A DNA stretch of 64,000 bases from Deltaproteobacteria bacterium (GTDB lineage: Bacteria > Acidobacteriota > Thermoanaerobaculia > Multivoradales > JAHZIX01): positions 628,884 to 692,883 of the forward strand of contig JAHZIX010000045.1 of assembly GCA_022601195.1 (NCBI GenBank), read 5' to 3'. Shown in pieces: positions 1,944 through 16,383 of this stretch. The translations under genes were made by a program, and so were the position numbers. Position 1 is the first letter of the stretch; each line of letters starts with the position of its first letter. Under the pieces are notes generated by a model that did no database searches, was not told where the DNA came from, and worked only from the letters and a program-made list of their open reading frames with translations.

Positions 1944-2840
1944 TCAGTCGAAGGCCTTCAAGATCTCCTCCGCCAGCCATCCACCGGACTCCTGAACGAA
2001 ATGACCCGACTCAGCGATCTCCAGGGGGGGCGGGCAGCCCTGAATGACCTTGCGCAGAGCTTGCATGACCGGAGGGCCCAGTACCGGGTCTTCCATGCCG
2101 ATGGCCATGAGGGTGGGGCCCGCCCACTGAGCCGACCACCACCTAGCTGCTCGCCGGGAAAGGGCGGCACCCGGTGCGTCCGGATGGTCCGGAACCAGGT
2201 CTGGAAACCGCCGCACTCCGGCTTTGTAGCGAATGTCCGGAAAGGGTGCATCGTAAGCGGCGAGCTCCCGAGCAGAAAGATCGGGGCAGGATCGTCCCAT
2301 GAGGCGTCCGATGGCCATGTCCGGGTTTTTGGCACTCCAGGCTCGCCAAGCCAAGAAGGCCGGCGGCAAGGCAGTTTCTCCGGTGGCGAGAGAGGTGTTC
2401 ATCACCACCAATCTGGAGTAGCGCTGGGCATCATCCATGGGGATCGTCAAGCCGAGGAGTCCTCCCCAATCCTGAGCCACCAAAGTGATGTTAGAGAGGC
2501 CCAGTCGCTCGACGAAGGTGATCAGCGAGGCACGGTGAAACTCGAAGGTGTAGACGCTTTCATCAGTGGGCTTATCGGAGCGTCCGAAGCCGAAGAAATC
2601 GGGAGCCACCACCCGATGTCCAGCGGCGGTAAAAACCGGCAGCATCTTGCGGTAGAGGTAGCTCCAGGTGGGTTGGCCGTGCAAACAGAGAAACACCGTC
2701 TCGGCATCTCTGGGCCCCTCGTCCAAGTAGTGCATTCGCAGCCCATCGAAACCCGGCAGGTCCTCCAGGTAGTGAGGTTCGAAAGGAAAATCCGGCAGGT
2801 CCGAAAAGAAATTCTCGGGGGTTCTCAAAATCTCATTCAC
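1944..2840 (-). CDS. haloalkane dehalogenase-like alpha/beta hydrolase
   Basis: N-terminal FPFEPHYLE...GLRMHYLDEGP, nucleophile elbow VAQDWGG, 298 aa. GTG start at 2838-2840 overlaps the stop of the upstream giant gene (GTGAATGA). Confidence 0.75.
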   Translation of the reverse strand: MNEILRTPENFFSDLPDFPFEPHYLEDLPGFDGLRMHYLDEGPRDAETVFLCLHGQPTWSYLYRKMLPVFTAAGHRVVAPDFFGFGRSDKPTDESVYTFEFHRASLITFVERLGLSNITLVAQDWGGLLGLTIPMDDAQRYSRLVVMNTSLATGETALPPAFLAWRAWSAKNPDMAIGRLMGRSCPDLSARELAAYDAPFPDIRYKAGVRRFPDLVPDHPDAPGAALSRRAARWWSAQWAGPTLMAIGMEDPVLGPPVMQALRKVIQGCPPPLEIAESGHFVQESGGWLAEEILKAFD

Positions 2841-5800
2841 GAGGAGTCCTTTCGTTGACTGCCGTGGCGGGAAGAGTGGTTCGGAGGTCGATCTTTCGGA
2901 GAGCGCCCACCAGGTCTCTGAGTTGGTCGAGATGTTTCAAGGTGCCATCTAGCTGGTCGCTGAGCAGGCGGTCCTTTTTGGCCTCCGAGCCCTGAACGCG
3001 GCGTCCGAGGCTCCTCACAGCAGGAATGAGTGCCTCTTCGATGGCTCCCACCAAGCGACCCATGAGGTCGTGAACTCCGGGGCCGAGGGTTTGGACGATC
3101 TCTCGGCCTCGAGGCGCCTCGGCGAGGGTGGCCAGTGTCTTGGAGAGGCTTTCCAAATAAGGGGAAAAATCCTGCGCCGGAGCGGCTGCCAGGTTCGTTG
3201 CCAGCCCTGTAGTCGCCGACGGGTCGACGGCGGGGACTCGGTTCTTGAGCTCCGCAGCTGCTCCGGAGAGGACCCGAACGACCTTCTCCATTCCCTTCGA
3301 CAGCGAAGCCAAATGGTGGTCGAGTTTCTGGAGGGCTTCCCCGCCAGCGAGCTCTTCCCCTGTTGAGGATTCTCGAGACAGGGCCAGGCTGGCTTGGATC
3401 TGTTCCAAGATCGGCGTTAAGGTCGCTGCCAGTTCCTCGGTACCCCTATCTTCTGCATCACTCTCTTCCGAACGAGCCGTCTCGCGGGTCGATTCTGCTA
3501 CCTCCTTCAGCTGGGAGCCGATCTCGCCCAAGCGGTCCGACATCAGGCCCAGCTGACCCACCACTCGTGTCGAAGGATCGTCTTCAGCTCCGCCCATGGA
3601 GAGCACGCGGGCAAAGCCCCGCTTGATCTCCGCCCACCGCGCTTGCTCCTCCGGGGTCAGGCGTCCGCGCAACTCCGCTAGCTTGAGGAGGTTGTGCTCC
3701 GCCCCCGTGGTCAGAGTTTGGGCTTCCCCCAAGTAGTGATTGTCGAGAAGGACCTCGAGCTCGTCGTCGTTCATCACCGGCACGATCTTCTCCGCCAACT
3801 TGTTCATGTTGCGGTAGCTGCCCTGGAGTTGAAAGGGAGGCTCGGTGCGAAAAGCCGGATCTTGAGCTGCAGAGAGAATGTACTGGCGATTGACTTCCAG
3901 AAGCACCTGCTGGACGGCTAGGAACTTCCTCAGGACGGCGAGAATCTCCCCCACTTCCGCCGCGGAGTATCCATGGGAAAGTTGATCCGCCTGTATCTGT
4001 TCTCCCTGGGCCATGCGCACCAGCAAGTAGGTATCCTGCGGATCCCGGGTTCCCAGGGGAGCCGTCACCGGGTTGGAGGTGAGAGCATTCTCTAGGTAGC
4101 TGAGGGCGAAAGTCTCCTCCTTGCCTTCCAGAATGTCACCCAGATTGTAGACATCCGCTCGGTTTGCCAACATGTCCGGGACCTGGAACTTATCTCCCGA
4201 TTCCGTGTAGGGGTTGCCGGCCATACAAACAGCGAAGCGCTTTCCCCTCAGGTCATAGGCCTTGGTTTGCCCTTGCCAGACTCCCTCCACCTTACGCTGA
4301 GCGTCGCACAGGGAGATGAACTTCTGTAGCAACTCCGGATGGGTATGCTGAATGTCATCCAAGTAGAGCAACACGTTGTTGCCCATCTCGAAAGAGAGAT
4401 TCATCTTCTCCACCTCGCGCCGGGCAGTCGCATTGGGAGCTTCCGCAGGGTCGAGGGAATGGACGCCGTGCCCAAGGGCCGGGCCGTTGATCTTCATGAA
4501 GACCAACCCCAGGCGATTGGCAACGTACTCCATCAAAGTTGTCTTGCCGTATCCCGGGGGAGAAATGAGCAGCAACAGGCCCATCTGATCGGTTCGCTTG
4601 TCGTCTCCAAGGGCACCCATCTGCTTGGCCAGGTTGTCCCCGACTAGTGGTAGGTAGACCTCGTTCAAAAGACGATTGCGAACGAAGGCGCTCATCACCC
4701 GAGGGCGGTACTCTTCGAGTCGCAATTGTCGGCGGTTCTCTTCCAGCGCTTGGTGTCGGCATTCCTGAAAACGCCGGAAGGCAGGAACTTGCGAGTGGCG
4801 GAAAGCCCCGAGGCGCGCCAGGAATTCATCGAGGCGAAGGGTCATCTTACGCTGAGAGATGCGCCCATGTTGGCCCAGGAGGCCCTCCACTTCGCCCTGT
4901 AGCAGGGCGCTCGAGGGTTCCCGAGACAGGAGGCCTTCGGTGAGAATCAGCGCCACCGCACCATCGACTTCCGCTGCTAGACCCAAGGGGACGTCCTTAG
5001 CCGCTGGCTTAGTCTCGTCGTTGGGACTCTTGGTGGAAGTGCCAGAAACTTGGTGCCTTTGATCCAAATAGGCTTCGATCCAGGCCTTGGCGAGGGAGTA
5101 GCGCTGGGGCAGGTGATCCACCAGCTCGCTCATATCCGCTTGAAACTCTCTCCAAGATCCGGTCTTTTCGAGGTGTACTTCGAAGCTTCGCCGCAGATCC
5201 TGGGCTCCTGCGCTGAGCACGAAAGTAGAGGATTCCTGGCAAATCTCTTCGAAGAGATATTGCCCTGCGGAGCGCTGGTCTTCAGGGTCCAAATGGAAAC
5301 CCAGCTGCTCGGAAAAAGTGCCGATGGCCGTGGCGAGCTCGGAACAGAAACGGACGATCTCCGGACTGTGGGCGAAGGCTCGACGGAGGCGCGCCAGGCT
5401 TTGAGCCCTTCGTTGCCAACGCTTTTTGGCCAGCTCATCTTTGAAACAGGCCCAAAACAGAACCGCGGCAGCTCTCGGTTTCGGCGCAAAGCGGAGAAGC
5501 CCGGCGGTAGCGTAGAGACCGAGGAGCTTGGATAGGATAAGGGTCGCGTCCGCATCGTGGAGGCCTCTTTCATAGCCTTCGTCATAGCGCTCCGCGGAGA
5601 ACCTTCGGACTCGTTCCAAAAGGCTCTCCTGGGACAATGCTGCCTGTTGCAGAACCTGCGGAGACAGCCCTTCGGACTCTTCTTCAGCTGCCGCCAGGAG
5701 GCAAGCCGCCAAATACTCTCCTCGGTAGACCTGGGGGTTCTCAGAGACCAGGTGCTGATCCCACAGTGGCCGCAACTCTTCGAGCTGGGAGTCTTCCAGA

Positions 5801-8550
5801 GGTTGATGGAAGTCCGTGCCCGTGAGGTGAAGCTCTAGATGACCTTCACGGGGAATCAGGGTCAAGTCCAGGTTCTGGGTGTTGACGCTGAAACGATGAC
5901 GCCCCAATTTGAGAACATCTGTGCCCTCTTCGAAGATGTCCTGGCGGTCCCGTAGGGAGCGAACCGCCTCCTGCCGGGCGCCTTTGAGGCGCGCATCTAC
6001 CTCGTCCGCTCGCACGCTGTCGCCCAATTCCCGAAGCCGGGAGGAGAGGTCTCGCAATCGGCTCACCATAGCGTCCGCAGCGAAGTAGCTGTTGAGCTCG
6101 TCACCTTCCGAAAGCGTCGCCGCTCGCCGGGCGATGCCTCCGAGAATGCGCTCCGCTGCTTGCATCAAATGGTTGGCTCGGCGTTGACGTTCGTCCAGCA
6201 GGCGTTGCTTCTTGGCGCTGAAAGCCTCGTAGACGTCTTCCCGCTTGGCTCCCAGCTGCTCCAGGTATTCCTCGAACTCACTGAAGCGACTCTCTAACTC
6301 CTCCAACTGCAGCATGAGCTTCGAAAGTTGCTCGTCACAGGCTTCCGGGGTGTCGCCGAGACTCAGGGCGCCGGCAACGCTCTGGTTGAAGAGTTGAAAC
6401 TGGACCGCGAACTCGGCGACCATTTCATGGGAGAGGAGCTCTTTGCGTCGCGCTTCTTGGAGGGCTCGGCACCGGTTGAGGCCACCGAGAACTTCCGACA
6501 CCCCCTCTAGAATGCCGGTCCGCACGGTGGCGTCGTCGATATCGAGGCCACTTACCACTTCTGCCAGCAGGTCAAACCCGGAGCTAAGGCTGTCGATGGA
6601 TTCTCGAAGCGGTCGGGCCTCGCTGACCTTCTGAACCACCTCTATCTCTTGCTCTAGCTCTTTGAGTCGCCGGTGAAAGGGAGCAAAGGCGTCCTTCTCG
6701 ACCAGGAAAGAAACCGTCGCCTGGCTGACTTGGTCGAACCGATCCGAGACCTGCTCCTCTAGGGAATCGAGGCGCGACGGGTCGGCGTAGCGCAACTCTC
6801 GCAGTGAAATTAGCCTCCCTCTCTGCTGGCGCAACTGGCTCAGGCCTTCCACAAAGGGTTCGATGGCACTCCAATCTTTGGGGCGCATCTGGCCCAATAG
6901 GGTCTCCACCTCGACAGCTGCCTGGTCCACCGCTTCCGTGGCCTGACTGCGGATGGCTTCGACCTTCTCGAATTCATCGACGATCAACTCGGCGGTGGTA
7001 CGTACCTCCTTGAGCTGGTCCAGAGGCTGGCCCACCTCCGGGCTACCGAGCCAGAAGTAGCTGTCGATGACTCGGTTGGCGGAGGCGATGAGATCTTCGT
7101 AGACGAGGCGACTCGCCTGCTGCTCTTCCACCATGCGGCACAGGCTCAGGAGGTCCGAGATTCCCCGAACCAGATCGGCGTTGCCAACCTTCTCTAGATA
7201 GGAACCGGAAGAGGGAGCTGCCGCAGCGTGCTCGGCGCTGGAAAAGGGAGTCTGCCAAACCTGCATGGGGTGGACTCGGGTCGGCTCCTCCGAGAGACAG
7301 CGAAAAATGACCATCTTGCCGTCGTCGAAGAAAGTGAACCCATGGCATTCAACGGGGTTTGACACCTCTTTGCGGATCACGTTGTAGGGCAGCATGACGG
7401 TCCGTCCCTGCTCCCGGTGGTGAAAGAGGTACAACACATCTTCCCCATTGGGGGAGCGCAGGGCGTGTTTGAACTCCAGCTGCGCCACTTTCGCGTCGAA
7501 GGTTCGAGTCTCGCCGCTCTGAAGGTAAAAGCCTCCGGGAAAAATGATGCCGTGGTCCTCCGGCAGCTGCACACAGGCCTGACCGATGGCATCGATGCGC
7601 TGAACCTGCTTGGTGCGGGTATTAAAGACCAGATAGCGCCAGGTTTCCTCCCGGTAGGGCTTCACCTTGAGGAGGATTAGAACCCCCACCTGGGCGTAGT
7701 GAATCTCTGCATCGTCGAGACTCTGGTCGGCATCGTCCACCGGTTCCCGGTAGATTCCCAAACCGTCTTCTGTGTTGTTCTCGATCTTGATGGTGAGATC
7801 GCCGCCTACGGTCTCTACAAAAACCTCATCGAGAATCGTCACGTGGGGGTGCCGGCCGGACACAAAGTGATCCCGGGTGGTTGGAGTCCATTCGAAGTCG
7901 TGAGAAGGTGGGAACTGGTGATCCCGCTCTCCCCGATTGTCGATGTAAGTGATTCGACCGTCCGGTGCAATGGCCCAGCGAAAGACCTTGATGTCACCGA
8001 GGGTCGAACCAGCCTGAAAGACCGCTAGCAAACGATCCTCGACCCGGCGCAGCTGGAGCAACCGAGCCGACTTGTAGTACTGGTAGAGTTCCTCGAATTC
8101 CCGCAGGAAGGTCGGGTCGGCAAGAAAATCGGGTTGAGCGCCATCCTTCAGAGGGGTGAGAGAAAAGCCTTCCTGGGTCGCTTCGAAGGTGTGCAGGCTG
8201 AAGACGTCCCTGACCGTGGTCTGGTGGCGAAGACCTATGAAGACGTTGTAGCCAAACAGCAGCCGATCGCCCACCGCGGCGATGTCTCGGGGCACACAAT
8301 TGTTCTGCGTGCGGATCCGTTCCGAACCGACCACGGACATCTCGGTGCTGCCAAACAGCTCCAAGCGCTCTGTGTTGAGGCGATTCGCCGCAGTCTTGAG
8401 GTTTCCCGCTTGCTCCAGCAGCCGATCGCGGACAACTTCATAGGTGCCCTGCTCCAGGGTCGAGGTTTCGCTCATAGGCTCCCCCATCGCCCGCCGGGCT
8501 CCAAGAAGTTTTTCGGCCAGGAAGTACCTCTCCTCCCGAACCCGGGCCAT
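2833..8550 (-). CDS. giant (1905 aa) protein with a single MoxR/AAA_5-type AAA+ ATPase module; function unknown
   Basis: Walker A LISPPGYGKTT (+ strand ~4541-4570), Walker B VLLYLDDIQH (~4345-4380), AAA_5-like AGNPYTESGDKFQVPDMLANRADVY (~4150-4230). Beta-rich N-terminal region, ~800 aa predicted coiled coil (E/L/R/Q-rich heptads), alpha-helical C-terminus. GGGGGAG SD before ATG 8550. Confidence 0.6.
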   Translation of the reverse strand: MARVREERYFLAEKLLGARRAMGEPMSETSTLEQGTYEVVRDRLLEQAGNLKTAANRLNTERLELFGSTEMSVVGSERIRTQNNCVPRDIAAVGDRLLFGYNVFIGLRHQTTVRDVFSLHTFEATQEGFSLTPLKDGAQPDFLADPTFLREFEELYQYYKSARLLQLRRVEDRLLAVFQAGSTLGDIKVFRWAIAPDGRITYIDNRGERDHQFPPSHDFEWTPTTRDHFVSGRHPHVTILDEVFVETVGGDLTIKIENNTEDGLGIYREPVDDADQSLDDAEIHYAQVGVLILLKVKPYREETWRYLVFNTRTKQVQRIDAIGQACVQLPEDHGIIFPGGFYLQSGETRTFDAKVAQLEFKHALRSPNGEDVLYLFHHREQGRTVMLPYNVIRKEVSNPVECHGFTFFDDGKMVIFRCLSEEPTRVHPMQVWQTPFSSAEHAAAAPSSGSYLEKVGNADLVRGISDLLSLCRMVEEQQASRLVYEDLIASANRVIDSYFWLGSPEVGQPLDQLKEVRTTAELIVDEFEKVEAIRSQATEAVDQAAVEVETLLGQMRPKDWSAIEPFVEGLSQLRQQRGRLISLRELRYADPSRLDSLEEQVSDRFDQVSQATVSFLVEKDAFAPFHRRLKELEQEIEVVQKVSEARPLRESIDSLSSGFDLLAEVVSGLDIDDATVRTGILEGVSEVLGGLNRCRALQEARRKELLSHEMVAEFAVQFQLFNQSVAGALSLGDTPEACDEQLSKLMLQLEELESRFSEFEEYLEQLGAKREDVYEAFSAKKQRLLDERQRRANHLMQAAERILGGIARRAATLSEGDELNSYFAADAMVSRLRDLSSRLRELGDSVRADEVDARLKGARQEAVRSLRDRQDIFEEGTDVLKLGRHRFSVNTQNLDLTLIPREGHLELHLTGTDFHQPLEDSQLEELRPLWDQHLVSENPQVYRGEYLAACLLAAAEEESEGLSPQVLQQAALSQESLLERVRRFSAERYDEGYERGLHDADATLILSKLLGLYATAGLLRFAPKPRAAAVLFWACFKDELAKKRWQRRAQSLARLRRAFAHSPEIVRFCSELATAIGTFSEQLGFHLDPEDQRSAGQYLFEEICQESSTFVLSAGAQDLRRSFEVHLEKTGSWREFQADMSELVDHLPQRYSLAKAWIEAYLDQRHQVSGTSTKSPNDETKPAAKDVPLGLAAEVDGAVALILTEGLLSREPSSALLQGEVEGLLGQHGRISQRKMTLRLDEFLARLGAFRHSQVPAFRRFQECRHQALEENRRQLRLEEYRPRVMSAFVRNRLLNEVYLPLVGDNLAKQMGALGDDKRTDQMGLLLLISPPGYGKTTLMEYVANRLGLVFMKINGPALGHGVHSLDPAEAPNATARREVEKMNLSFEMGNNVLLYLDDIQHTHPELLQKFISLCDAQRKVEGVWQGQTKAYDLRGKRFAVCMAGNPYTESGDKFQVPDMLANRADVYNLGDILEGKEETFALSYLENALTSNPVTAPLGTRDPQDTYLLVRMAQGEQIQADQLSHGYSAAEVGEILAVLRKFLAVQQVLLEVNRQYILSAAQDPAFRTEPPFQLQGSYRNMNKLAEKIVPVMNDDELEVLLDNHYLGEAQTLTTGAEHNLLKLAELRGRLTPEEQARWAEIKRGFARVLSMGGAEDDPSTRVVGQLGLMSDRLGEIGSQLKEVAESTRETARSEESDAEDRGTEELAATLTPILEQIQASLALSRESSTGEELAGGEALQKLDHHLASLSKGMEKVVRVLSGAAAELKNRVPAVDPSATTGLATNLAAAPAQDFSPYLESLSKTLATLAEAPRGREIVQTLGPGVHDLMGRLVGAIEEALIPAVRSLGRRVQGSEAKKDRLLSDQLDGTLKHLDQLRDLVGALRKIDLRTTLPATAVNERTPRE

Positions 8551-8609
8551 CCCAACCGGGCTCGGAAAGAGGTTCGGATTCCGGAAGAGCGGGATTTTCT
8601 AGAGAGGAA

Positions 8610-8669
8610 TGGGCGCCCCTCGGTTTCCTCGACAGCCTTCCGGTGATGGATCCAAACTGGGCGCCCCTC
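8610..8669. promoter_or_regulatory. two copies of the palindrome-containing motif TGGGCGCCCCTC (8610-8621 and 8658-8669) between flotillin and the giant ATPase gene
   Basis: Exact 12-nt direct repeat, 48 bp apart, each containing the perfect palindrome GGGCGCCC. Lies in the 145-bp spacer upstream of the giant gene start. Confidence 0.25.
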
Positions 8670-8695
8670 TTGCTTGTTTAGCGACCCCGCCCCCA

Positions 8696-10741
8696 TCACG
8701 CCTTGAGATCCTCAATCCCCATTTCCCGGGCGACTTCCACGAGCCGGCTCAACTTAGCCTTGCCGTCACCTTCGAGGCCCGAGCCGAGACGTGCCAGGAG
8801 CCCGGCCAGGGTCAAGTCCTTGAGATCTCCGGAAGTCAAGGCCGGTCGGGAAAGAACCTCCTTGATATCTTCCGGGAGGCTGGCATCGCCTTCCAGGTAG
8901 TCCTTGAACAGATTCTGAGTCTGCTCACTGCGTCCCACAAAACCATCCACAGCCTTGCCCATGGAGATGGCGCCCACCAATTTGTCGAGGAAAGCGCCGT
9001 CGCCGCCGACGATATCGATGCGGGCGTTGCTCAAAGCCTCGGCGAGTACCTTGGCTTGAGCCTCGGCGACCTCTCGGCGAGCTTGGATACCTTCCAAACC
9101 GAGTACTCGTTCGTTCTCCAGCTGCAAGCGGTATTCCTCGTGACCTCGGCCTGCCTCGTCCAGAGCCTCCATGGCCGCGGCTTTTGCCGACAAGCCTTGG
9201 GCCTCGGCGCTGAGCCTCGCCTCGATCGCTTCCGCTTCCGCGGTTCCTTTTTGGCGAACCACGGCGGCTTCCGCGGTGCCGTATTTTTCGGTCGCCTCGG
9301 CGTCGACCTCTTTGATCCGCGCCTCGGCCAAGCCCACCTTCTCGATGGCGATGGCGTCCGCCTCTTTGACGGTGACCTGAGCCAACCCGGAAGCGGCTTC
9401 TTCCGCTTTGACGCCTTCCGCCAAACGAATTTTTGCCTGCGCCTCCTTGTCGGCGATCTCCAAGTCCGCCTGGGCCAAGGTCAGTTGTTCGCGGGCCTTA
9501 TGTTCCGCGGCAGCTTCCGCAGCTTCTGCAGCCTTGATGTCTTTGACCAATAGCTCCTGGGCCTCGCCTTCGGCCGTAATGACCGCGGCCTGCTTGGTGC
9601 GCTCAGCATCCTCGACCACTCGCAGTGTCTTGATGCTCTCCTCTTCTTCCGCCACGGTCTTGTCCACCACGACTCGTTCGCGGACCACCATGGCGATTTC
9701 CTTGCGTTCCACCTCGAGCTCTTTCTCCTTGGAGATACGAGACAGCTCCACTTCTCTCTCTCGGACGATGGCTTCCAGGGCCCGGTCTTTTTCCACCCGC
9801 TCCGCCTCTACGCTGACCACTCGCTCCCGGTTTTTCTGGGCAACTTCTACTTGTCGCAGCTTATTTTCCTCAGCGATGGCCAGCTCTTCATCGGTCCTGA
9901 TGCGAGCGGATTCGGAGCGCAGGCTTTCTTCCGCCTGGATCTTCAGAATCTCGGCCTGCTCTCGAGCCTTGACGGTTTCGATTTCCCGTTCTTGTTTGGC
10001 CTCGGCGTCCGCTTGCTGTCGCTCGAGCTCGAGGATCGCCTCCTGGGCTTCGACATCCTGTTTCTTGATCTTCTTGCGCTCATCGTTCTGAAACTCGTTG
10101 GTGCGAACGTGCTCCACGGCGGTCAGCTCGGTGATTTTGCGAATGCCCTGGGCGTCGAGGATATTGTCCGGATCCAGGGACGATAGGGGGGTTTGCTCCA
10201 GGTAGTCGATGGCGGCGTCTTCCAACACGTAGCCATTGAGGTCCCGGCCGATCACCCCGATGATCTGGTCGCGGAACTCTTCTCGCTTGGTGTAGAGGTC
10301 GACGAAATCTAACTGCTTACCGACGGTTTTCAAGGCCTCCGAAAACTTGGCGCTGAAGAGCTCTTCCAGAGTCTTCTGGTCCGAGGCCCGGGCACAGCCA
10401 ATGGCCTGAGCCACCTTGATGACGTCTTCGCGAGTCTTGTTGACCCGAACAAAGAAGGTCACCTTGATGTCTCCACGGATATTGTCCTGGCAGATCAATC
10501 CATCTTTTCCGCGTCGGTCGATCTCGATGGTCTTGACGGAAATGTCCATCGCTTCCGCTTTGTGGATCACCGGGATCACCAAGTCGCCGGTGAAAGTCAC
10601 CTTCGGCTCAGCCCCTAATTTATTGACAATGAGTGCTCTACCCTGCTCCACCTTGCGGTAGAGCCGGGCTACCAGCAAGCCCGCTCCGAGTAGAAAGAAA
10701 ATGAGGATGAGACCAACGACTACGGGAAAAATTAGATCCAT
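8696..10741 (-). CDS. flotillin (SPFH/band-7 domain protein, FloT/YqiK-like)
   Basis: N-terminal membrane hairpin (MDLIFPVVVGLILIFFLLGAGLLVA), an SPFH domain, then a long EA/EAE-repeat coiled coil typical of bacterial flotillins. AAGGAGGG SD upstream. Confidence 0.85.
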   Translation of the reverse strand: MDLIFPVVVGLILIFFLLGAGLLVARLYRKVEQGRALIVNKLGAEPKVTFTGDLVIPVIHKAEAMDISVKTIEIDRRGKDGLICQDNIRGDIKVTFFVRVNKTREDVIKVAQAIGCARASDQKTLEELFSAKFSEALKTVGKQLDFVDLYTKREEFRDQIIGVIGRDLNGYVLEDAAIDYLEQTPLSSLDPDNILDAQGIRKITELTAVEHVRTNEFQNDERKKIKKQDVEAQEAILELERQQADAEAKQEREIETVKAREQAEILKIQAEESLRSESARIRTDEELAIAEENKLRQVEVAQKNRERVVSVEAERVEKDRALEAIVREREVELSRISKEKELEVERKEIAMVVRERVVVDKTVAEEEESIKTLRVVEDAERTKQAAVITAEGEAQELLVKDIKAAEAAEAAAEHKAREQLTLAQADLEIADKEAQAKIRLAEGVKAEEAASGLAQVTVKEADAIAIEKVGLAEARIKEVDAEATEKYGTAEAAVVRQKGTAEAEAIEARLSAEAQGLSAKAAAMEALDEAGRGHEEYRLQLENERVLGLEGIQARREVAEAQAKVLAEALSNARIDIVGGDGAFLDKLVGAISMGKAVDGFVGRSEQTQNLFKDYLEGDASLPEDIKEVLSRPALTSGDLKDLTLAGLLARLGSGLEGDGKAKLSRLVEVAREMGIEDLKA

Positions 10742-10823
10742 CGCAACCCTCCTTGGTTCGTCGTGAAAAGTCGAAGACGCGAGCCGCCGTTCTCGGCAGC
10801 TTGCCCAGCCGGTCTATAGAGCC

Positions 10824-11519
10824 CTAAGTCAAAGCTTCGGCTACAGGGGTGACCAGGTACGTCTCTTTGTGGGCGTCGTACTTGAAAATCAGAGCTTTGG
10901 AGCCGCGGGTCAGAACGTTGGCTTCCAAACAACGAATGGGAACGAGCAGGCCGGCGCCGCCATCTTCGATCTCTGCCTGGCCGAACTCCAGGTCGACCCG
11001 CAAGGTGGTCACCGTACAGAGCTCGCCGACAAAGGCTTGGCGTTTGGGGGCTAGGTGAGAGACCAGCATTTTTCGAAGCGGGCGGGCACTCAAGGCGGCG
11101 GCACCGAGCCCCAATCCCAAAGCACCAGCTCCTACGAGGATCGCGGCCCAAGTCGCTTTCGACCCGCCCTCGATCGCGTCCATTCCGAGGTAGCTAGCCA
11201 TCCAGCCTACGAAGGTGAGAGTCGTTAGGGAGATCGTCAAAGGCACTCCCGAGAGGCCAAGAAGCTGTAGCAGGCCACCGGAAGTCGCCGAATTACCATC
11301 CGCTCCATCCCCACCCCCTTCACCGACGCCTTCCCCAATACCGTCCGCCGCTTCGAGAGCAGCTTCGGAACCTCCCTCCAGGAGGCCGTCCAGATCCAGT
11401 ATGTCGACGTCCAAGATTCCGGCAATGACAAACAGCCAATACACCAGCAGAACGCCTAAGGGAACAGTGAATAACACCGTCGGAAAGGCCAGGATTGCGT
11501 CTAGAAATTCGGTCATCAT
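10824..11519 (-). CDS. NfeD/YqiJ-like membrane protein (flotillin-associated, OB-fold C-terminus)
   Basis: N-terminus MMTEFLDAILAFPTVLFTVPLGVLLVYWLFV resembles YqiJ. It has multiple TM segments, a Gly/Asp-rich linker and a C-terminal beta-rich region. AAGGAA SD before ATGATG at 11519; the track ORF extends to 11552. Sits 82 nt upstream of flotillin, as in yqiJ-yqiK. Confidence 0.55.
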   Translation of the reverse strand: MMTEFLDAILAFPTVLFTVPLGVLLVYWLFVIAGILDVDILDLDGLLEGGSEAALEAADGIGEGVGEGGGDGADGNSATSGGLLQLLGLSGVPLTISLTTLTFVGWMASYLGMDAIEGGSKATWAAILVGAGALGLGLGAAALSARPLRKMLVSHLAPKRQAFVGELCTVTTLRVDLEFGQAEIEDGGAGLLVPIRCLEANVLTRGSKALIFKYDAHKETYLVTPVAEALT

Positions 11520-11928
11520 TTCCTTTTTTGTTCCAAATACAACGAGATACACCTAGCAGCATTATACCATCTCGAGATTCTTTTGCCGGGCGCGGCTGTT
11601 GTATTTGGTCCTGAATAGCAGGAAAGGGTTTAGTTTTTCTAGGAGTAGGTGGGGGAAGGGGGCGCTCTGGCTTGCGGCCAAAGGCTGGGAAAATTTGAGT
11701 CAAGGGGACCGTTGAACTGGCAGCTCGCCAGGCTGGCCGAAGTTCCTGTCTGACGTCGACAGAGCACATCGACCTCTTTAGCCCCGTGGACTCCTCCTCC
11801 AATCGAGTTCAGTGGGTAGGTCGACAAGCCGCATAGCTGGCTGACGGCTTGGCCATCCTCCCCTGACTCTTTTGGTGTCGGCTCGTCGATGGAAGAACGG
11901 ATAGAGCCAAATCTGGAGGTGAACTCGA

Positions 11929-12270
11929 TGGAACATCGCTATAACGCCGTCTTTGCACAGATAGGCGACCTTCGGATGGGCTTGCGGAAGAGGTTCCCGG
12001 TGCGAATAGGCAGGGCGAGAGCCTCGAAGAGGCCCGGGAAAACTTGAAGGAAGCGATTCAGCTGACCCTCGAGGCGAATCGAGACATTGCCCGCCGGCGC
12101 AGCGAAGGTCATACCGTCGTGCGCGAAGAGCTCCTGGTCTCGGTGGCAGGAAGTGTCGCCAGCTCCTCAAACATCTAAAGAAACACGGCTGTGAGCTGCT
12201 ACGAGAAGGTGGTCGCTTCGCACGTGCTCTCTTCGACTCACAAATAGGCCCAGCGTTTTCCGGAGAGTCA
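11929..12270 (+). pseudogene. degenerate hicB-hicA-like type II toxin-antitoxin remnant (frameshifted)
   Basis: Frame 1 from ATG 11929 reads MEHRYNAVFAQIGD. An overlapping frame reads DGLAEEVPGANRQGESLEEARENLKEAIQLTLEANRD (HicB/UPF0150-like). A third frame reads KCRQLLKHLKKHGCELLREGG, then the HicA catalytic GSHH is split between frames (GGRFARALF / ASHVLSSTHK*). At least two frameshifts and no start codon for the HicA part. Confidence 0.4.
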
Positions 12271-12328
12271 AGTCAGGCGAGGCAGAAAGGCGGCCCCCCG
12301 AAGGAGGGGCCGCCGGAAAGGTCGAGAC

Positions 12329-14395
12329 CTAGTGACTTTCGCGAATAGGGGGCGCGAGGAGGTCTTCGATGCCGATAGAGGGCTGGTTTTCCAGCCTCAC
12401 CGGTTCCAGCTCCTTGAAGGGGTCTTCCGGTAGTTTTCCGGTTTCTTCCAGGGCCGTAAGAACGTGGTGACGGTTGAAGGGGCGGAACTTGAAGCACTTC
12501 ATCTTGGCCACGGCCTTGATGTCAGCTTCACGGCGTTCCAGGTCGTCGAAATCCCGCAGTTTCGGTGCGCCGGCCCCGGTGTAGACCGGATCCGCGACGG
12601 TGATTCCGGTCAGGAAGCCGGAAAGGGCAGCCGGTAGCCCTGGGGTAGCCGGGTCGACATGGACGAATACCGTATCCGTCTCGCGAGCATGGCAACCGTT
12701 ACAGGCGGCGACTCCAACCTGGCTTCGCAGGTCCGAGTGGGCCATGTTGTTGGCCCCGTCTAGGGGAAGCGGCCCGTTCCAATGGAAGGGTGGTGGCGGG
12801 GCACCAGGAACCTTGGGATTGGCGGCTAGGAAGTTCAGGTTGTTGAAAATGAGCGGCACCGGCCGGGGGCCGAAGAGAACGTAGTTCGAGAAATCCACCG
12901 TGTTGTTGAAGCCCAGGTCCGGCGTGTCCGCAGCGGTGGTTTCATGAAGCGTATCCCAGGGGATTTGCATCAGACGGAACTCTCGTAGCTCCCATGGGAA
13001 CTCCTGGCCGATCTCGTTGGTGCGCAGCTGGCCGAGGGCGCTGCCATTGGGCCTGGTGGGGTTGGCGTTGCGACGCACGAAGGTATTGGTGAGTCGGTTG
13101 AGAGTCGCATTGTAGCTTGCCGAAGGGAAGGGCAGGTTGGCGAGGCGAACCCACGCTTTGGCCCAGTCCCGGACATCTTCGCACTCACATTTCGGAACCC
13201 GATACTCAAAGATCACCGAGAAGGCGAGGCCTCGGCAGCCACCACCCAGGTTGACGAGAGTTGGTTGGAAGAAAGGGCTGGCGTCGTAGCTCGGAGGCAG
13301 AACCACGCCGAATACGAAGCGGGCTTCACCAGCGTCGAGGAATTTACCGGTGCTGCTACCCAGGTAACCACCGCTGGTTCCCGTGGTGGAGCGCAGGTCG
13401 ACTCTGGAGACGATGGCCAGCAGCCGGAAGGGTGCGATGGAAAGGTCCAAGTCACCGCCGCCACTGGCAGCCCGCCAGTCAGCGATGAGAGAAGCCATGG
13501 CTGCTCGGGCAGGAACGTTGAAGCTATTGACGTTTTGGGCGGTGCCCCACTGCTTCAGCCACTCTTCGGTCATGAAACTGGGGTCGATACCGGTCGCCGG
13601 TTCGTTAGCCATTTCTCTCATCAGGTGACCAAACGTCCACTGCCCCATGGGGGCTCCGGTGCTAGTGCAGGGATCCCAGGTGCGAGCTGGATCCGTCACC
13701 ACACTGACATCGGTGATCATCAGGGAGCGGTCTTGGAAGATATTGGTGCCAGGAGTGAAGGCGTTGGCGACAACGGAGTCGAGGTGCTCACCTTGCTGGC
13801 CCTGGCCAGTTGCGGCGCTCAGGGGGTTGCCCGCCGCCGGAGCCGGCTCTTCGGTGGCCAGCAGGTTCGATGTGAGGGCTCGGCCAAAAGCGACCCGCTC
13901 TCCGGCGAGAAATTTGTTGGCATCGAAGGGAGTCGTCGCCTTGGTACCGACCCGGACCCGACCATCGAAAACCGGGGCCAGTTTGGCTCCTCGGTCGGAT
14001 TCACCGCGGTCATTCTCTCCACGCTCAATGAGCTCGGAGTCGTCAATAGAGATTCGGCCGGTGAAGACTCCATCCCCGTGGCGGTCATCATCCCCCTTGC
14101 CATCGTCGCGGAGCAGCAAGCTCTGGGAGTCGTCACCTACGATAAGAAAGGTCTTTTCACCGGTCACTTTGGCTAGAGCTGTGACCCCTTCATTGTCCAG
14201 AGTGACGAAGATCCGAGCGTTGCCCTGGCCTCCTTCATCGTCAGCTTTCTGAATCGAAACCGACTCCGGTGGTGGTACGAAGGTGGTGAGCTCCCTCGCC
14301 AAGCTCGGCATGGCCACCAAGCTGGTCAGGCTTAGGGCCAGAATCCACGGGATCCCTCTCTGTTTCTTAGGTTTTGCCACGTTTGTTCCCTCCAT
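12329..14395 (-). CDS. secreted hypothetical protein (688 aa) with a single CXXCH motif
   Basis: Signal-peptide-like N-terminus (ILALSLTSLVAMPSLA). No recognisable catalytic domain. C-terminal CNGCH (possible c-type heme site). Confidence 0.5.
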   Translation of the reverse strand: MEGTNVAKPKKQRGIPWILALSLTSLVAMPSLARELTTFVPPPESVSIQKADDEGGQGNARIFVTLDNEGVTALAKVTGEKTFLIVGDDSQSLLLRDDGKGDDDRHGDGVFTGRISIDDSELIERGENDRGESDRGAKLAPVFDGRVRVGTKATTPFDANKFLAGERVAFGRALTSNLLATEEPAPAAGNPLSAATGQGQQGEHLDSVVANAFTPGTNIFQDRSLMITDVSVVTDPARTWDPCTSTGAPMGQWTFGHLMREMANEPATGIDPSFMTEEWLKQWGTAQNVNSFNVPARAAMASLIADWRAASGGGDLDLSIAPFRLLAIVSRVDLRSTTGTSGGYLGSSTGKFLDAGEARFVFGVVLPPSYDASPFFQPTLVNLGGGCRGLAFSVIFEYRVPKCECEDVRDWAKAWVRLANLPFPSASYNATLNRLTNTFVRRNANPTRPNGSALGQLRTNEIGQEFPWELREFRLMQIPWDTLHETTAADTPDLGFNNTVDFSNYVLFGPRPVPLIFNNLNFLAANPKVPGAPPPPFHWNGPLPLDGANNMAHSDLRSQVGVAACNGCHARETDTVFVHVDPATPGLPAALSGFLTGITVADPVYTGAGAPKLRDFDDLERREADIKAVAKMKCFKFRPFNRHHVLTALEETGKLPEDPFKELEPVRLENQPSIGIEDLLAPPIRESH

Positions 14396-14764: not shown

Positions 14765-15010
14765 TCAGGTCTCTTGCGCTTCCGTGTCGTCGAGGCCCTG
14801 GACGATCTGTGTCACTTCTACTTCCGCTTTGCGGATCTTGCCTCGACAGAGCTCGAGGAGGGCTGCCCCTCGCTGCAGCTCGGTCGCTAGCTGATCGATG
14901 TCGATCTCTTCGCCTTCGATGCGGCGTAGGATCTCTTCAAGGCTCTCCAAGGCCTCACCGAAGCTAAGCTGTTCGTCGGTCCCGTCATCTGACGCCTTTT
15001 TCTCAGTCAA
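14765..15010 (-). CDS. xseB: exodeoxyribonuclease VII small subunit
   Basis: 81 aa, LSFGEALESLEEILRRIE...LLELCRGKIRKAE, typical of XseB. Start overlaps the xseA stop. Confidence 0.85.
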   Translation of the reverse strand: MTEKKASDDGTDEQLSFGEALESLEEILRRIEGEEIDIDQLATELQRGAALLELCRGKIRKAEVEVTQIVQGLDDTEAQET

Positions 15011-16383
15011 ATCGATTCCTCCACACGGCTTTGGATAGTGCCCTGTCCGAGCTCGGTAGTAATGCGGCTTCCCGAGGCGACTTGTTGCGCTTGCCTCAAA
15101 GCCTTGCCGGTTGGGTCTCTGGTAATGCTGAATCCTCGAGCGAGAGTTTTGGCTGGGGACAGCTGCTCGCAGAGCCGCGCCAACCCGTCGAGGGTTGCAT
15201 GAGCATGGGCGAGGCGCCCCCGAGCAAGCGCTGCAATCTGCCGCTGAGTCTCCTGAGGTTTTCTGCGACGGGACTCCAGGAAGCGCGGGCCTTCGTGGGC
15301 GAGGTTTCGGCTCAGATGATCACATTGCTCACGAGCACGGCGCAGGCGAGCTTCGGAAACGAGAGCGAGTAGTCGGGCAGTCTCCCGGAGTCGAGCCGAT
15401 GCGGCTGTCAATCTAGCTTCTGCAACTTTCAGGGCACTCTCGCATCGATTCACGGCTTCGGTCGCGCGCCGTAGGGGTTCGCGGGCCTCCCTTACCAAGC
15501 GGCGGTGGTATTCATGAGCTTCCGCTTCTGCTGTCGCCAAACGCTCTACTAGGAACTCAGCCACTTTGGTCGGCGTCTTGAGGCTGGTGTGGGCGACTCG
15601 GTCAGCGATGCTGGTGTCGATCTCGTGACCTAGACCGGTGAGCACGGGAAAGGGAGTCCTGGCTACCGCTTCGGCGACCTTTCGGGAGTCGAATACGGCG
15701 AGATCGCTCCGCGAGCCACCCCCGCGAATGAGCACCGCTGCCTCTACCGGTCGCTGCAGTGAGGCCAGGGCTTTGAGGGCGGAAGCGATCTCGCCTTCCG
15801 CGGACCGCCCCTGCACCGAGGCGTGAACAAAGACGAGACGAAAGCCGTAGCCGCTCTCCTGGAGCGTGCTGAGGAAGTCGTGAAAGGCGGCGCTACCGTG
15901 GGAGGTGACCAGGCCTAGCCGCAGCGGTAATTCCGGTAGGGCCTGGCGGCGGTTGCGATCCAAAAGCCCGGCGGTTTCCAGAGCTGCCAGGGTTTGTCGT
16001 CGGCGCTGCTCCAGGAGACCTAGGGTGAAAACCGGATCGACCTCCCGAACGACCACTTGCAGGCGGCCACCGGGCGGCCAGAAATCCACCTGTACGCGGC
16101 AGCGAATCTCCAGGCCTTCGGTGATGCTTTGGTCTACCGCCGACATGCTCCGCCGAATCCTGGCGAAGTCGCCGCGCCAGATCACCGCGTCAATCTTGGC
16201 AACGATGCCGTCTGCGGAGTCCTTTTCGATGAGCTCGAAGTAGAAATGACCGCGCTGGCTGGCTCTCGCCCGCTGCACTTCTCCAACCACCCAAATGGAC
16301 GGAAATGCGGAGCTCAAGAGGTCTCGGATCTCTCCACAAAGATCCGAGACTTTATAGGTTGGTTCCCCAGGAAGTCCGTTCAA
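15007..16383 (-). CDS. xseA: exodeoxyribonuclease VII large subunit
   Basis: OB-fold N-terminus (VSDLCGEIRDLL...VWVVGEVQ), catalytic core, C-terminal coiled coil; 458 aa. Confidence 0.9.
   Translation of the reverse strand: MNGLPGEPTYKVSDLCGEIRDLLSSAFPSIWVVGEVQRARASQRGHFYFELIEKDSADGIVAKIDAVIWRGDFARIRRSMSAVDQSITEGLEIRCRVQVDFWPPGGRLQVVVREVDPVFTLGLLEQRRRQTLAALETAGLLDRNRRQALPELPLRLGLVTSHGSAAFHDFLSTLQESGYGFRLVFVHASVQGRSAEGEIASALKALASLQRPVEAAVLIRGGGSRSDLAVFDSRKVAEAVARTPFPVLTGLGHEIDTSIADRVAHTSLKTPTKVAEFLVERLATAEAEAHEYHRRLVREAREPLRRATEAVNRCESALKVAEARLTAASARLRETARLLALVSEARLRRAREQCDHLSRNLAHEGPRFLESRRRKPQETQRQIAALARGRLAHAHATLDGLARLCEQLSPAKTLARGFSITRDPTGKALRQAQQVASGSRITTELGQGTIQSRVEESI

Follow-up and report, generated by a model that had tools for sequence, protein, structure and literature searches.

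In the yqiJ-yqiK gene pair of Escherichia coli and the yuaF-floT pair of Bacillus subtilis (Hinderhofer et al. 2009, PMC2636767), the gene for an NfeD-like membrane protein stands first and the gene for a flotillin second on the same strand. Neither pair includes a third gene; in E. coli, sibD/ibsD come after yqiK. A longer operon, placed in the Psp network of the envelope-stress response, was described by Ravi, Anantharaman et al. (mSystems 2024, PMC11237479; bioRxiv 2020.09.24.301986), in which a CesT/Tir-PspA pair is encoded together with a YqiJ/YuaF-type protein, a flotillin and an AAA+ ATPase, and the same authors describe an 'abbreviated' form without PspA that is said to be more widespread. 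Their study is purely computational and takes the mechanism no further than 'chaperone-like / membrane dynamics'. Here we analyze a locus of this kind in a 64-kb stretch of contig JAHZIX010000045.1 from an Acidobacteriota genome, the whole of which is referred to below as the window. Three co-oriented genes of its minus strand encode, in this order, a YqiJ/NfeD-like membrane protein (10824-11552, 242 amino acids (aa) from a GTG start, or 10824-11519, 231 aa from an ATG), a flotillin-like protein of 681 aa (8696-10741) and a giant AAA+ protein (2833-8550) of 1905 aa when read from its first ATG, or 1884 aa if M22 (8487) is the start. The list of open reading frames (ORFs) contains all three at the coordinates and in the order given by an earlier sequence-only reading of this DNA. 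The layout of the first two genes is the same as in the E. coli and B. subtilis pairs.

The order of the three proteins is identical to that in the operon of Ravi et al., whose Table S3 includes an example from Dokdonia with the same gene order and architectures. As in that operon, the first product is a YqiJ/YuaF-type membrane protein with about three predicted transmembrane (TM) segments, the second a membrane-anchored protein with band-7, coiled-coil and flotillin parts, and the third an AAA+ ATPase that carries a beta-propeller at its N-terminus and a coiled coil. The window differs from the full published form in having no CesT/Tir-PspA pair and in a haloalkane dehalogenase gene that overlaps the 3' end of the unit. 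We assign the locus to the abbreviated form, since it has no PspA/Tir homologue and the next coding sequence upstream lies on the opposite strand. Members of the same giant-protein family occur within the full form on a Hymenobacter plasmid, in Aquimarina, in a metagenome-assembled genome of Cyclobacteriaceae and on plasmid pQBR103 of Pseudomonas fluorescens SBW25. The full-form loci in our set are L037, L038 and L082, with pQBR103 (L081) carrying the module in a longer Psp-type gene row; Tir-PspA lies upstream in L037 and L038, and PspA in L029. On the Hymenobacter plasmid the order is Tir chaperone, PspA, DUF1449, flotillin-like protein and 'DNA repair ATPase', and on pQBR103 a longer row of YjfI-PspA-rhomboid-YjfK/L/M type precedes the module. 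In most loci the module occurs without PspA. The locus is a member of a known, computationally described module whose association was published in 2020/2024; it had been proposed as an undescribed one, and this does not hold, as Ravi et al. (PMC11237479) already include the PspA-less form. The present analysis adds the one-to-one pairing of a flotillin clade with the ATPase, the assignment of the ATPase to the MoxR/midasin/dynein clade, and lineage-specific additions to the module (a dehalogenase and a rhomboid protease).

Flotillins of the SPFH2 group (YqiK, FloT) assemble in the membrane into big oligomers, as rings or foci. SPFH proteins form ring- or cage-like oligomers, the cages with NfeD partners, and that of QmcA and YbbJ is built from 26 heterodimers (PMC13086221). 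HflK/C, YbbK and the prohibitins interact with the FtsH protease (PMC2636767), and FloA-NfeD stabilises unfolded proteins without ATP (PMC13086221). The pairing suggested by the window locus resembles HflK/C-FtsH, YbbK/QmcA-YbbJ and prohibitin-m-AAA in that an SPFH scaffold would likewise be coupled to an AAA+ machine (PMC2636767, PMC13086221), and the view that an AAA+ partner for such a scaffold would be functionally new was too strong. The enzymes differ: FtsH is a membrane-anchored AAA+ protease of the classical clade, whereas the giant protein is predicted to be soluble, contains no protease domain, is about three times the size and falls by its modelled fold in the MoxR/dynein clade.

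The three genes are inherited together across phyla

Homologues of the giant protein are numerous, with more than 6,776 at E<=1e-10. A genome scan with one genome per species gave 80 loci in which the giant protein has a relative, with identities of 35-59%. They belong to at least seven phyla, and include Actinomycetota, Myxococcota, Planctomycetota, Bacteroidota, Verrucomicrobiota, Acidobacteriota, Gammaproteobacteria (Providencia and Proteus) and Burkholderiales. Linkage was counted in the 70 loci that have at least 3 kb of upstream DNA. In 66 of these 70, a flotillin-like gene of the same strand is found upstream of the giant gene, so that the recurrent adjacency to nfeD-flotillin genes, which had been set beforehand as the test on which the proposed association would stand or fall, is borne out. 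The gap between the two genes is below 500 nucleotides (nt) in 60 of the 70 loci, and in 12 the start codon of the second gene overlaps the stop codon of the first, by 4 nt. Gaps of 50-100 nt are typical, many are overlaps of -4, and the spacer in the window is longer than most. At least 54 loci have an NfeD-like gene upstream of that for the flotillin. Across phyla the identity of the giant protein is 35-59% and that of the flotillin 41-66%, and pairwise protein distances correlate closely between giant protein and flotillin (r = 0.96) and between giant protein and NfeD-like protein (r = 0.93). As a unit, the three genes are co-inherited across phyla.

Clustering of the flanking ORFs recovered no fourth family common across taxa: only the three module families recur. 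One further cluster proved to be an artefact, made up of shadow ORFs antisense to the flotillin gene in high-GC genomes. No homologue was found in 50,697 phage records, in viral contigs or in 5,426 E. coli genomes.

The pairing is strict in the plasmid collection. Flotillins with 36-64% identity and a coverage of 80% or more occur in exactly 13 records, and the same 13 have the giant gene, always adjacent. The flotillins of the other 294 plasmid records are of the YqiK type, match at about 30% identity or less with below 80% coverage, and none of these records has the giant gene. The module flotillins form a separate clade, with at most ~30% identity to YqiK-type proteins and 36-66% among module members of different phyla. 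By these identities, the window flotillin belongs to a clade that in the plasmid collection is found only next to the giant ATPase. Several of the module-bearing PLSDB records are 4-12 Mb in size (NZ_LT559118.1, NZ_OL790811.1 and NZ_OL790812.1; Nonomuraea at 11.85 Mb, Proteus mirabilis at ~4.08 Mb). These are evidently chromosomes filed as plasmids, and plasmid carriage of the module is therefore rarer than the number 13 suggests.

In four Aureispira loci (L041, L043, L044 and L059) 2-5.7 kb are inserted between the flotillin-like and giant genes; the insert of L041 is a 604-aa ORF without a Pfam match. The Aureispira flotillins are also longer (three of these four have 873-884 aa), and that of L041, the one scanned, matches Band_7.

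Architecture of the three proteins

The flotillin-like and NfeD-like proteins of the window match no Pfam or NCBIfam family even at E=10. Family alignments and comparison with YqiK and YqiJ of E. coli were therefore used to establish their homology. The NfeD-like protein has about three hydrophobic segments and an acidic loop of Asp, Glu and Gly, as seen in the hydropathy profile and family alignment, and the alignment also shows a conserved beta-rich C-terminal domain with the pattern GxxCTVxT...FGQAEV...VR...GDxAxI. In the NfeD family the C-terminal part is a beta-barrel of OB fold that faces the SPFH partner. The family profile aligns with E. coli YqiJ at a hhalign probability of 92.9% (E 3.6e-7), and the best PDB sequence match is the soluble domain of B. 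subtilis YuaF (2k14), at a weak E of 0.055. Pfam YqiJ_N matches 5 of 22 family members, the window protein not among them, and the gene in the corresponding position on the Hymenobacter plasmid is annotated as DUF1449. Together with the hydropathy, the YqiJ and YuaF matches bear out the earlier naming of an NfeD/YqiJ-like membrane protein, and on these comparisons we classify the first gene product as a YqiJ/YuaF-type (NfeD2-like) membrane protein.

The flotillin-like protein is preceded directly by this NfeD2-type (YqiJ/YuaF) partner. It is 28% identical to E. coli YqiK over 483 aa (BLASTP, E 2e-40), and the match covers the SPFH region (aa 2-200). Hydropathy reveals one N-terminal TM segment. 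The protein can be divided into an N-terminal TM anchor (aa 1-29), an SPFH region (~aa 30-200), a long Ala/Glu-rich helical region (~aa 200-570) and a conserved C-terminal tail. Pfam Band_7 matches 4 of 24 family members (best E 7e-12) in addition to the Aureispira member (E 8e-16). Against the PDB the family profile finds QmcA only, at a weak E of 0.016; the sequence of the protein alone recovers nothing but noise from coiled coils (dynein, E 0.3). Among the plasmid homologues that are annotated, some are labelled 'flotillin family protein' or 'SPFH domain-containing protein'. The protein had been called a canonical flotillin, of which the family assignment stands through the YqiK homology and the word canonical does not, the sequence being divergent and without a Pfam or NCBIfam match. 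The profile searches proposed earlier thus gave a mixed outcome: a weak AAA/AAA_5 match for the giant protein, no Band_7 or NfeD match for the window proteins, and Band_7 matches in some of the homologues.

The giant protein has no TM segment according to its hydropathy profile, which indicates a soluble ATPase. Structure prediction, suggested as a check by the earlier reading, was carried out with AlphaFold2 (AF2) on two halves of the protein with 60 homologues, and reached a mean pLDDT of 82 and 77. From the N- to the C-terminus, the models show a helix, an all-beta domain, long helices over about 430 residues, a small beta domain, a helical domain, a single AAA+ core and a helical extension. 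The N-terminal helix and beta-propeller correspond to Pfam DUF3686 (aa 51-499, nt 7054-8400; E 1.2e-213). The all-beta domain (aa ~72-433) is modelled with pLDDT mostly of 80-93, and its Foldseek matches are beta-propellers: the WD40 domain of DCAF1, Elp1, Vps18 and the propeller of prolyl oligopeptidase. DUF3686 is N-terminal in nearly all of the long proteins (~1,600-2,000 aa) listed among 769 representative cluster matches. The long alpha-helical, coiled-coil region that follows (aa ~439-870, nt 5941-7236) consists of AF2 helices of 20-58 residues; it includes Pfam DUF7902 (aa 620-704, nt 6439-6693; E 4.4e-28), and yields superficial Foldseek matches to dynein heavy chains.

The one AAA+ module lies in the C-terminal third (aa ~1324-1570, nt 3844-4581), as had been claimed. 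It is delimited by AF2 and by a weak Pfam AAA/AAA_5 match at aa 1326-1449. We identified a Walker A motif GYGKT (aa 1333-1337, nt 4540-4554), a Walker B motif LYLDD (aa 1395-1399, nt 4354-4368), a sensor-1 Asn in MAGNPY (aa 1443-1448) preceded by a beta-hairpin, and a conserved Arg in MLANRAD (aa 1460-1466). Walker A, Walker B, the sensor-1 Asn and the MLANRAD Arg are invariant in 61 homologues. Because these nucleotide-site residues do not vary, the module probably binds and hydrolyses ATP. In fold searches with the AF2 models the core is closest to MoxR, midasin and dynein, which places it, on the modelled structure, in the MoxR/midasin/dynein clade. The C-terminal helical extension (aa ~1650-1905, nt 2833-3600) is modelled partly at low confidence. 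It is present in the long forms of the Acidobacteriota/Myxococcota type, and appears to be missing from the actinobacterial and Providencia proteins, judging by their lengths (~1,630-1,650 aa) and by tblastn matches that end at ~q1680.

The core, with its pre-sensor-1 beta-hairpin, is closest in fold to MoxR members, and the protein as a whole departs from that family. MoxR proteins (NorQ, CbbQ, RavA; Pfam AAA_5) are ~250-350 aa long, with NorQ and CbbQ chains of 254 and 267 residues, whereas the giant protein has 1,905 aa and its AAA+ module is embedded with a propeller and a coiled coil. Its Walker B is DD, unlike the DE of the MoxR family. NorQ works with the VWA protein NorD, whereas no VWA or other further family recurs beside the flotillin and NfeD-like families among the module neighbours. 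Given its size of 1,905 aa and the lack of a recurring VWA-type neighbour, we file the giant protein as MoxR-like in fold and not as a member of the MoxR family, which consists of small stand-alone ATPases with a VWA partner.

Start sites, spacers and neighbouring genes

The most probable start of the NfeD-like gene is ATG 11519 or 11516 and not GTG 11552, since its homologues start at M-x-E-F in the family alignment. A candidate promoter with an extended -10 box, TGgTATAAT (11569-11561, minus strand), was read directly from the sequence before the first gene of the operon, and would place the transcript start at about GTG 11552. The consensus promoter scan requires both hexamers, and this box is not in its list. 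The start of the giant gene is ambiguous between M1 (8550), M22 (8487) and M26. Homologues align from about residue 22-35, and the NCBI model P0001, which is 100% identical to the giant protein, has 1884 aa, 21 residues fewer than the full ORF; this length fits a start at M22.

The first two genes are separated by 82 nt (10742-10823) and the second and third by 145 nt (8551-8695). The latter spacer may be ~208-220 nt, given the ambiguity between M22 and M26. As had been noticed, the spacer of 145 nt carries a duplicated palindromic motif: two exact copies of the 12-mer GAGGGGCGCCCA, which contains the palindrome GGGCGCCC, lie 48 nt apart at 8610-8621 and 8658-8669 (8610-8669, minus strand). 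With up to one mismatch allowed, the pattern has 3 matches in the window against 0.95 expected in shuffles. The motif was not found in any of 85 related loci, and the repeat is a local feature of this genome. We also considered the motif as an RNA element and rejected it, as the fold is no better than that of shuffled sequences (z 0.51) and the motif is missing in relatives. The consensus scan found no terminator-like or promoter-like site in either spacer, and the independent promoter or terminator between flotillin and giant genes that would have separated them is accordingly not seen there.

The haloalkane dehalogenase gene (1944-2840, minus strand, 298 aa, GTG start) shares 8 nt with the end of the giant gene (cGTGAATGA), and AGGA stands ~8 nt upstream. 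Its product matches NCBIfam NF002043 haloalkane dehalogenase (E 3.5e-108), and the GTG start is credible because this alignment begins at residue 3. The overlap of the two genes reported by the sequence-only reading is real, and a place for the dehalogenase in a conserved unit is not supported: a homologue is missing from all 80 related loci (80/80), and from the region downstream of the module in a 64%-identical relative (L084). The dehalogenase is a lineage-specific passenger outside the conserved module.

Upstream of the module, a 688-aa ORF (12329-14395, minus strand) has a signal-peptide-like N-terminus and no significant Pfam or NCBIfam match (a faint 'choice-of-anchor X' at E 0.004). 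It looks like an insertion, because it is missing from L084, where xseA-xseB abut the module. Both this ORF and the dehalogenase were considered as module members and rejected, as neither has a homologue in the 80 loci. A GC-rich inverted repeat at ~12285-12315, 3' of the 688-aa ORF, reads as a candidate terminator. The gene xseA, for the large subunit of exonuclease VII, lies upstream of the module in the window (15007-16383, minus strand), and xseA and xseB are directly upstream of it in L084 (3125-4863). This synteny is local and not conserved in other phyla; it could feed a misleading 'DNA repair' label. Divergent from the operon, at 11889-12178 on the plus strand, are two short ORFs in different frames (52 aa, 'MEERIEPNLEVNSMEHRYNAVFAQ...', and 44 aa, 'MKEAIQLTLEANRDIARRRSEGHTVVREELLVS...'), which taken together read like a frameshifted remnant of a HicB-type antitoxin.

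A gene for a rhomboid intramembrane protease lies near the module in five Providencia loci (L013, L014, L016, L021 and L064; ~14896-15486). Its start overlaps the stop of the giant gene in Providencia alcalifaciens (L013), and its position is the same in the other four. Such a gene is also part of the larger Psp-type operon of pQBR103 (L081, 1427-1981), and the window has none. The rhomboid protease may be a lineage-specific fourth component, recalling the pairing of SPFH proteins with proteases.

A possible motor on a flotillin cage

We consider it reasonably probable that the giant protein is an ATP-driven partner of a flotillin-NfeD membrane cage, acting in envelope stress or membrane remodelling. 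By analogy with QmcA-YbbJ, flotillin rings and cages and HflK/C-FtsH, the flotillin and the YqiJ-like protein would assemble into a large oligomeric cage at the inner membrane, on its cytoplasmic face. The giant protein may oligomerise via its AAA+ module and dock on the cage through its N-terminal propeller and long coiled coil. In the setting of envelope stress, ATP hydrolysis would then remodel either the cage, through its assembly, opening or disassembly, or the proteins or membrane that it holds. Our more specific proposal, that the flotillin clade and a MoxR/dynein-like motor of 1.6-1.9 thousand residues form an obligate pair in which the motor opens, closes or dismantles the cage with ATP, is a tentative one.

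Several observations weigh against a cage-associated motor. In four of the 70 loci (L045, L066, L077 and L079) the giant-gene match does have DNA upstream of it but no adjacent flotillin or NfeD gene. The match in L079 is partial; in L045 the nearest upstream ORFs are of trehalose type (GH15, GT20) and on the other strand, and L066 likewise has no adjoining flotillin. The gene of the ATPase can thus at least stand apart. The Walker B motif is Asp-Asp and not Asp-Glu, which makes the rate of ATP hydrolysis uncertain. A tblastn search of the 64-kb window recovered no homologue of PspA or Tir. An internal promoter or operator missed by consensus scans could lie in the spacer of 145-208 nt with its repeated palindrome. 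Finally, the literature search found no paper that mentions DUF3686, none that links a flotillin with a 'DNA repair ATPase' and no experimental paper on the ATPase. A 2025 review of ESCRT-III and a 2026 paper on the SPFH proteins of Pseudomonas aeruginosa (PMC13086221) do not mention the ATPase, and a 2026 preprint on MoxR/propeller sensing in Actinobacteria was set aside because it concerns another system.

A sharper version of the cage-motor reading makes the ATPase a dedicated motor for disassembly and recycling of the flotillin polymer, with no processing of clients, as Vps4 acts on ESCRT-III. The strict one-to-one pairing of the flotillin clade with the ATPase and their tight co-variation (r 0.96) would suit such a role, and Ravi et al. 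(PMC11237479) liken the PspA/Snf7-associated AAA+ ATPases to Snf7-Vps4 in ATP-dependent membrane remodelling. PspA is missing in most loci, and the substrate must therefore usually lie within the three proteins. However, no MIT-like domain was seen in the giant protein, and we regard this version as doubtful. The spacer raises the question of whether the giant gene is here a transcription unit of its own, with a promoter or operator between the genes and GAGGGGCGCCCA as a candidate site for a regulator. The length of the spacer and the two exact palindrome-containing 12-mers, unique to this genome among the 85 loci, agree with this. Yet the spacer contains no sigma-70-like promoter or terminator-like site and its RNA fold is unremarkable, which leaves separate transcription unlikely; it would in any case be compatible with a functional link, as an internal promoter would leave the conserved linkage intact.

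Databases offer a different function altogether: NCBI names the giant protein 'DNA repair ATPase', and the description of Pfam DUF3686 reads 'ATPase involved in DNA repair', in which case the adjacency to flotillin would have no functional meaning. The protein does have weak matches of the RuvB type over the P-loop region (residues 1317-1360), and RuvB is among its Foldseek matches, but the former score far under the family cut-offs (20 bits against 282) and are confined to that region. The gene xseA is nearby in both the window and L084, a proximity that is not kept beyond close relatives. A knockout of a yqiK-family gene in Shewanella shows increased spontaneous mutation (PMC1468410). Against this, domain and profile searches detected no nuclease, helicase or DNA-binding domain in the giant protein, our literature search found no paper that supports the name, and the linkage to two membrane proteins, translational overlap included, is kept across phyla. 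We find a role in DNA repair scarcely credible. An anti-phage or conflict system, in which the propeller senses an invader and the AAA+/flotillin pair is a membrane-directed effector, would accord with the patchy distribution of the module, which is consistent with transfer, and with its presence on large plasmids (pQBR103 and those of Hymenobacter, Streptomyces and Deinococcus). PspA is linked to phage-secretin stress, and in work from the Aravind laboratory a large NTPase with a beta-propeller is a recurring theme of conflict systems. PADLOC, however, returned only a weak P-loop match for the giant protein (IetA, E 5.5e-4, ~30 residues) and none for the flotillin or NfeD-like protein. The phage records and viral contigs gave no match, no nuclease, toxin or other effector domain was seen, and no defence genes recur beside it in the flank-ORF clusters. 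All three proteins are also well conserved across phyla, unlike fast-evolving sensors. A defence function is in our judgement very improbable.

The reading of the giant protein as a motor on a flotillin cage bears on a family whose biology is poorly defined. What most SPFH proteins of bacteria, flotillins among them, do physiologically is still unclear (PMC13086221, PMC12005517). Knockout phenotypes are often weak, and P. aeruginosa mutants without one or several SPFH genes show no pronounced change (PMC13086221). A flotillin clade whose dedicated ATPase accompanies it in all 13 of the plasmid records and in 66 of the 70 genome loci offers a concrete partner to study. Thousands of database entries are named 'DNA repair ATPase' without traceable evidence, and their context points to the membrane and to the Psp envelope-stress network. 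Among the carriers are organisms amenable to laboratory work, namely Proteus mirabilis, Providencia, Streptomyces and P. fluorescens SBW25 with pQBR103. The association itself is not new, and the module is an underused entry point into the function of bacterial flotillins. If the giant protein does act as a motor on the cage, flotillin assemblies would be actively remodelled machines and not passive scaffolds, and the ATPase would be the first enzymatic handle on bacterial flotillin function.

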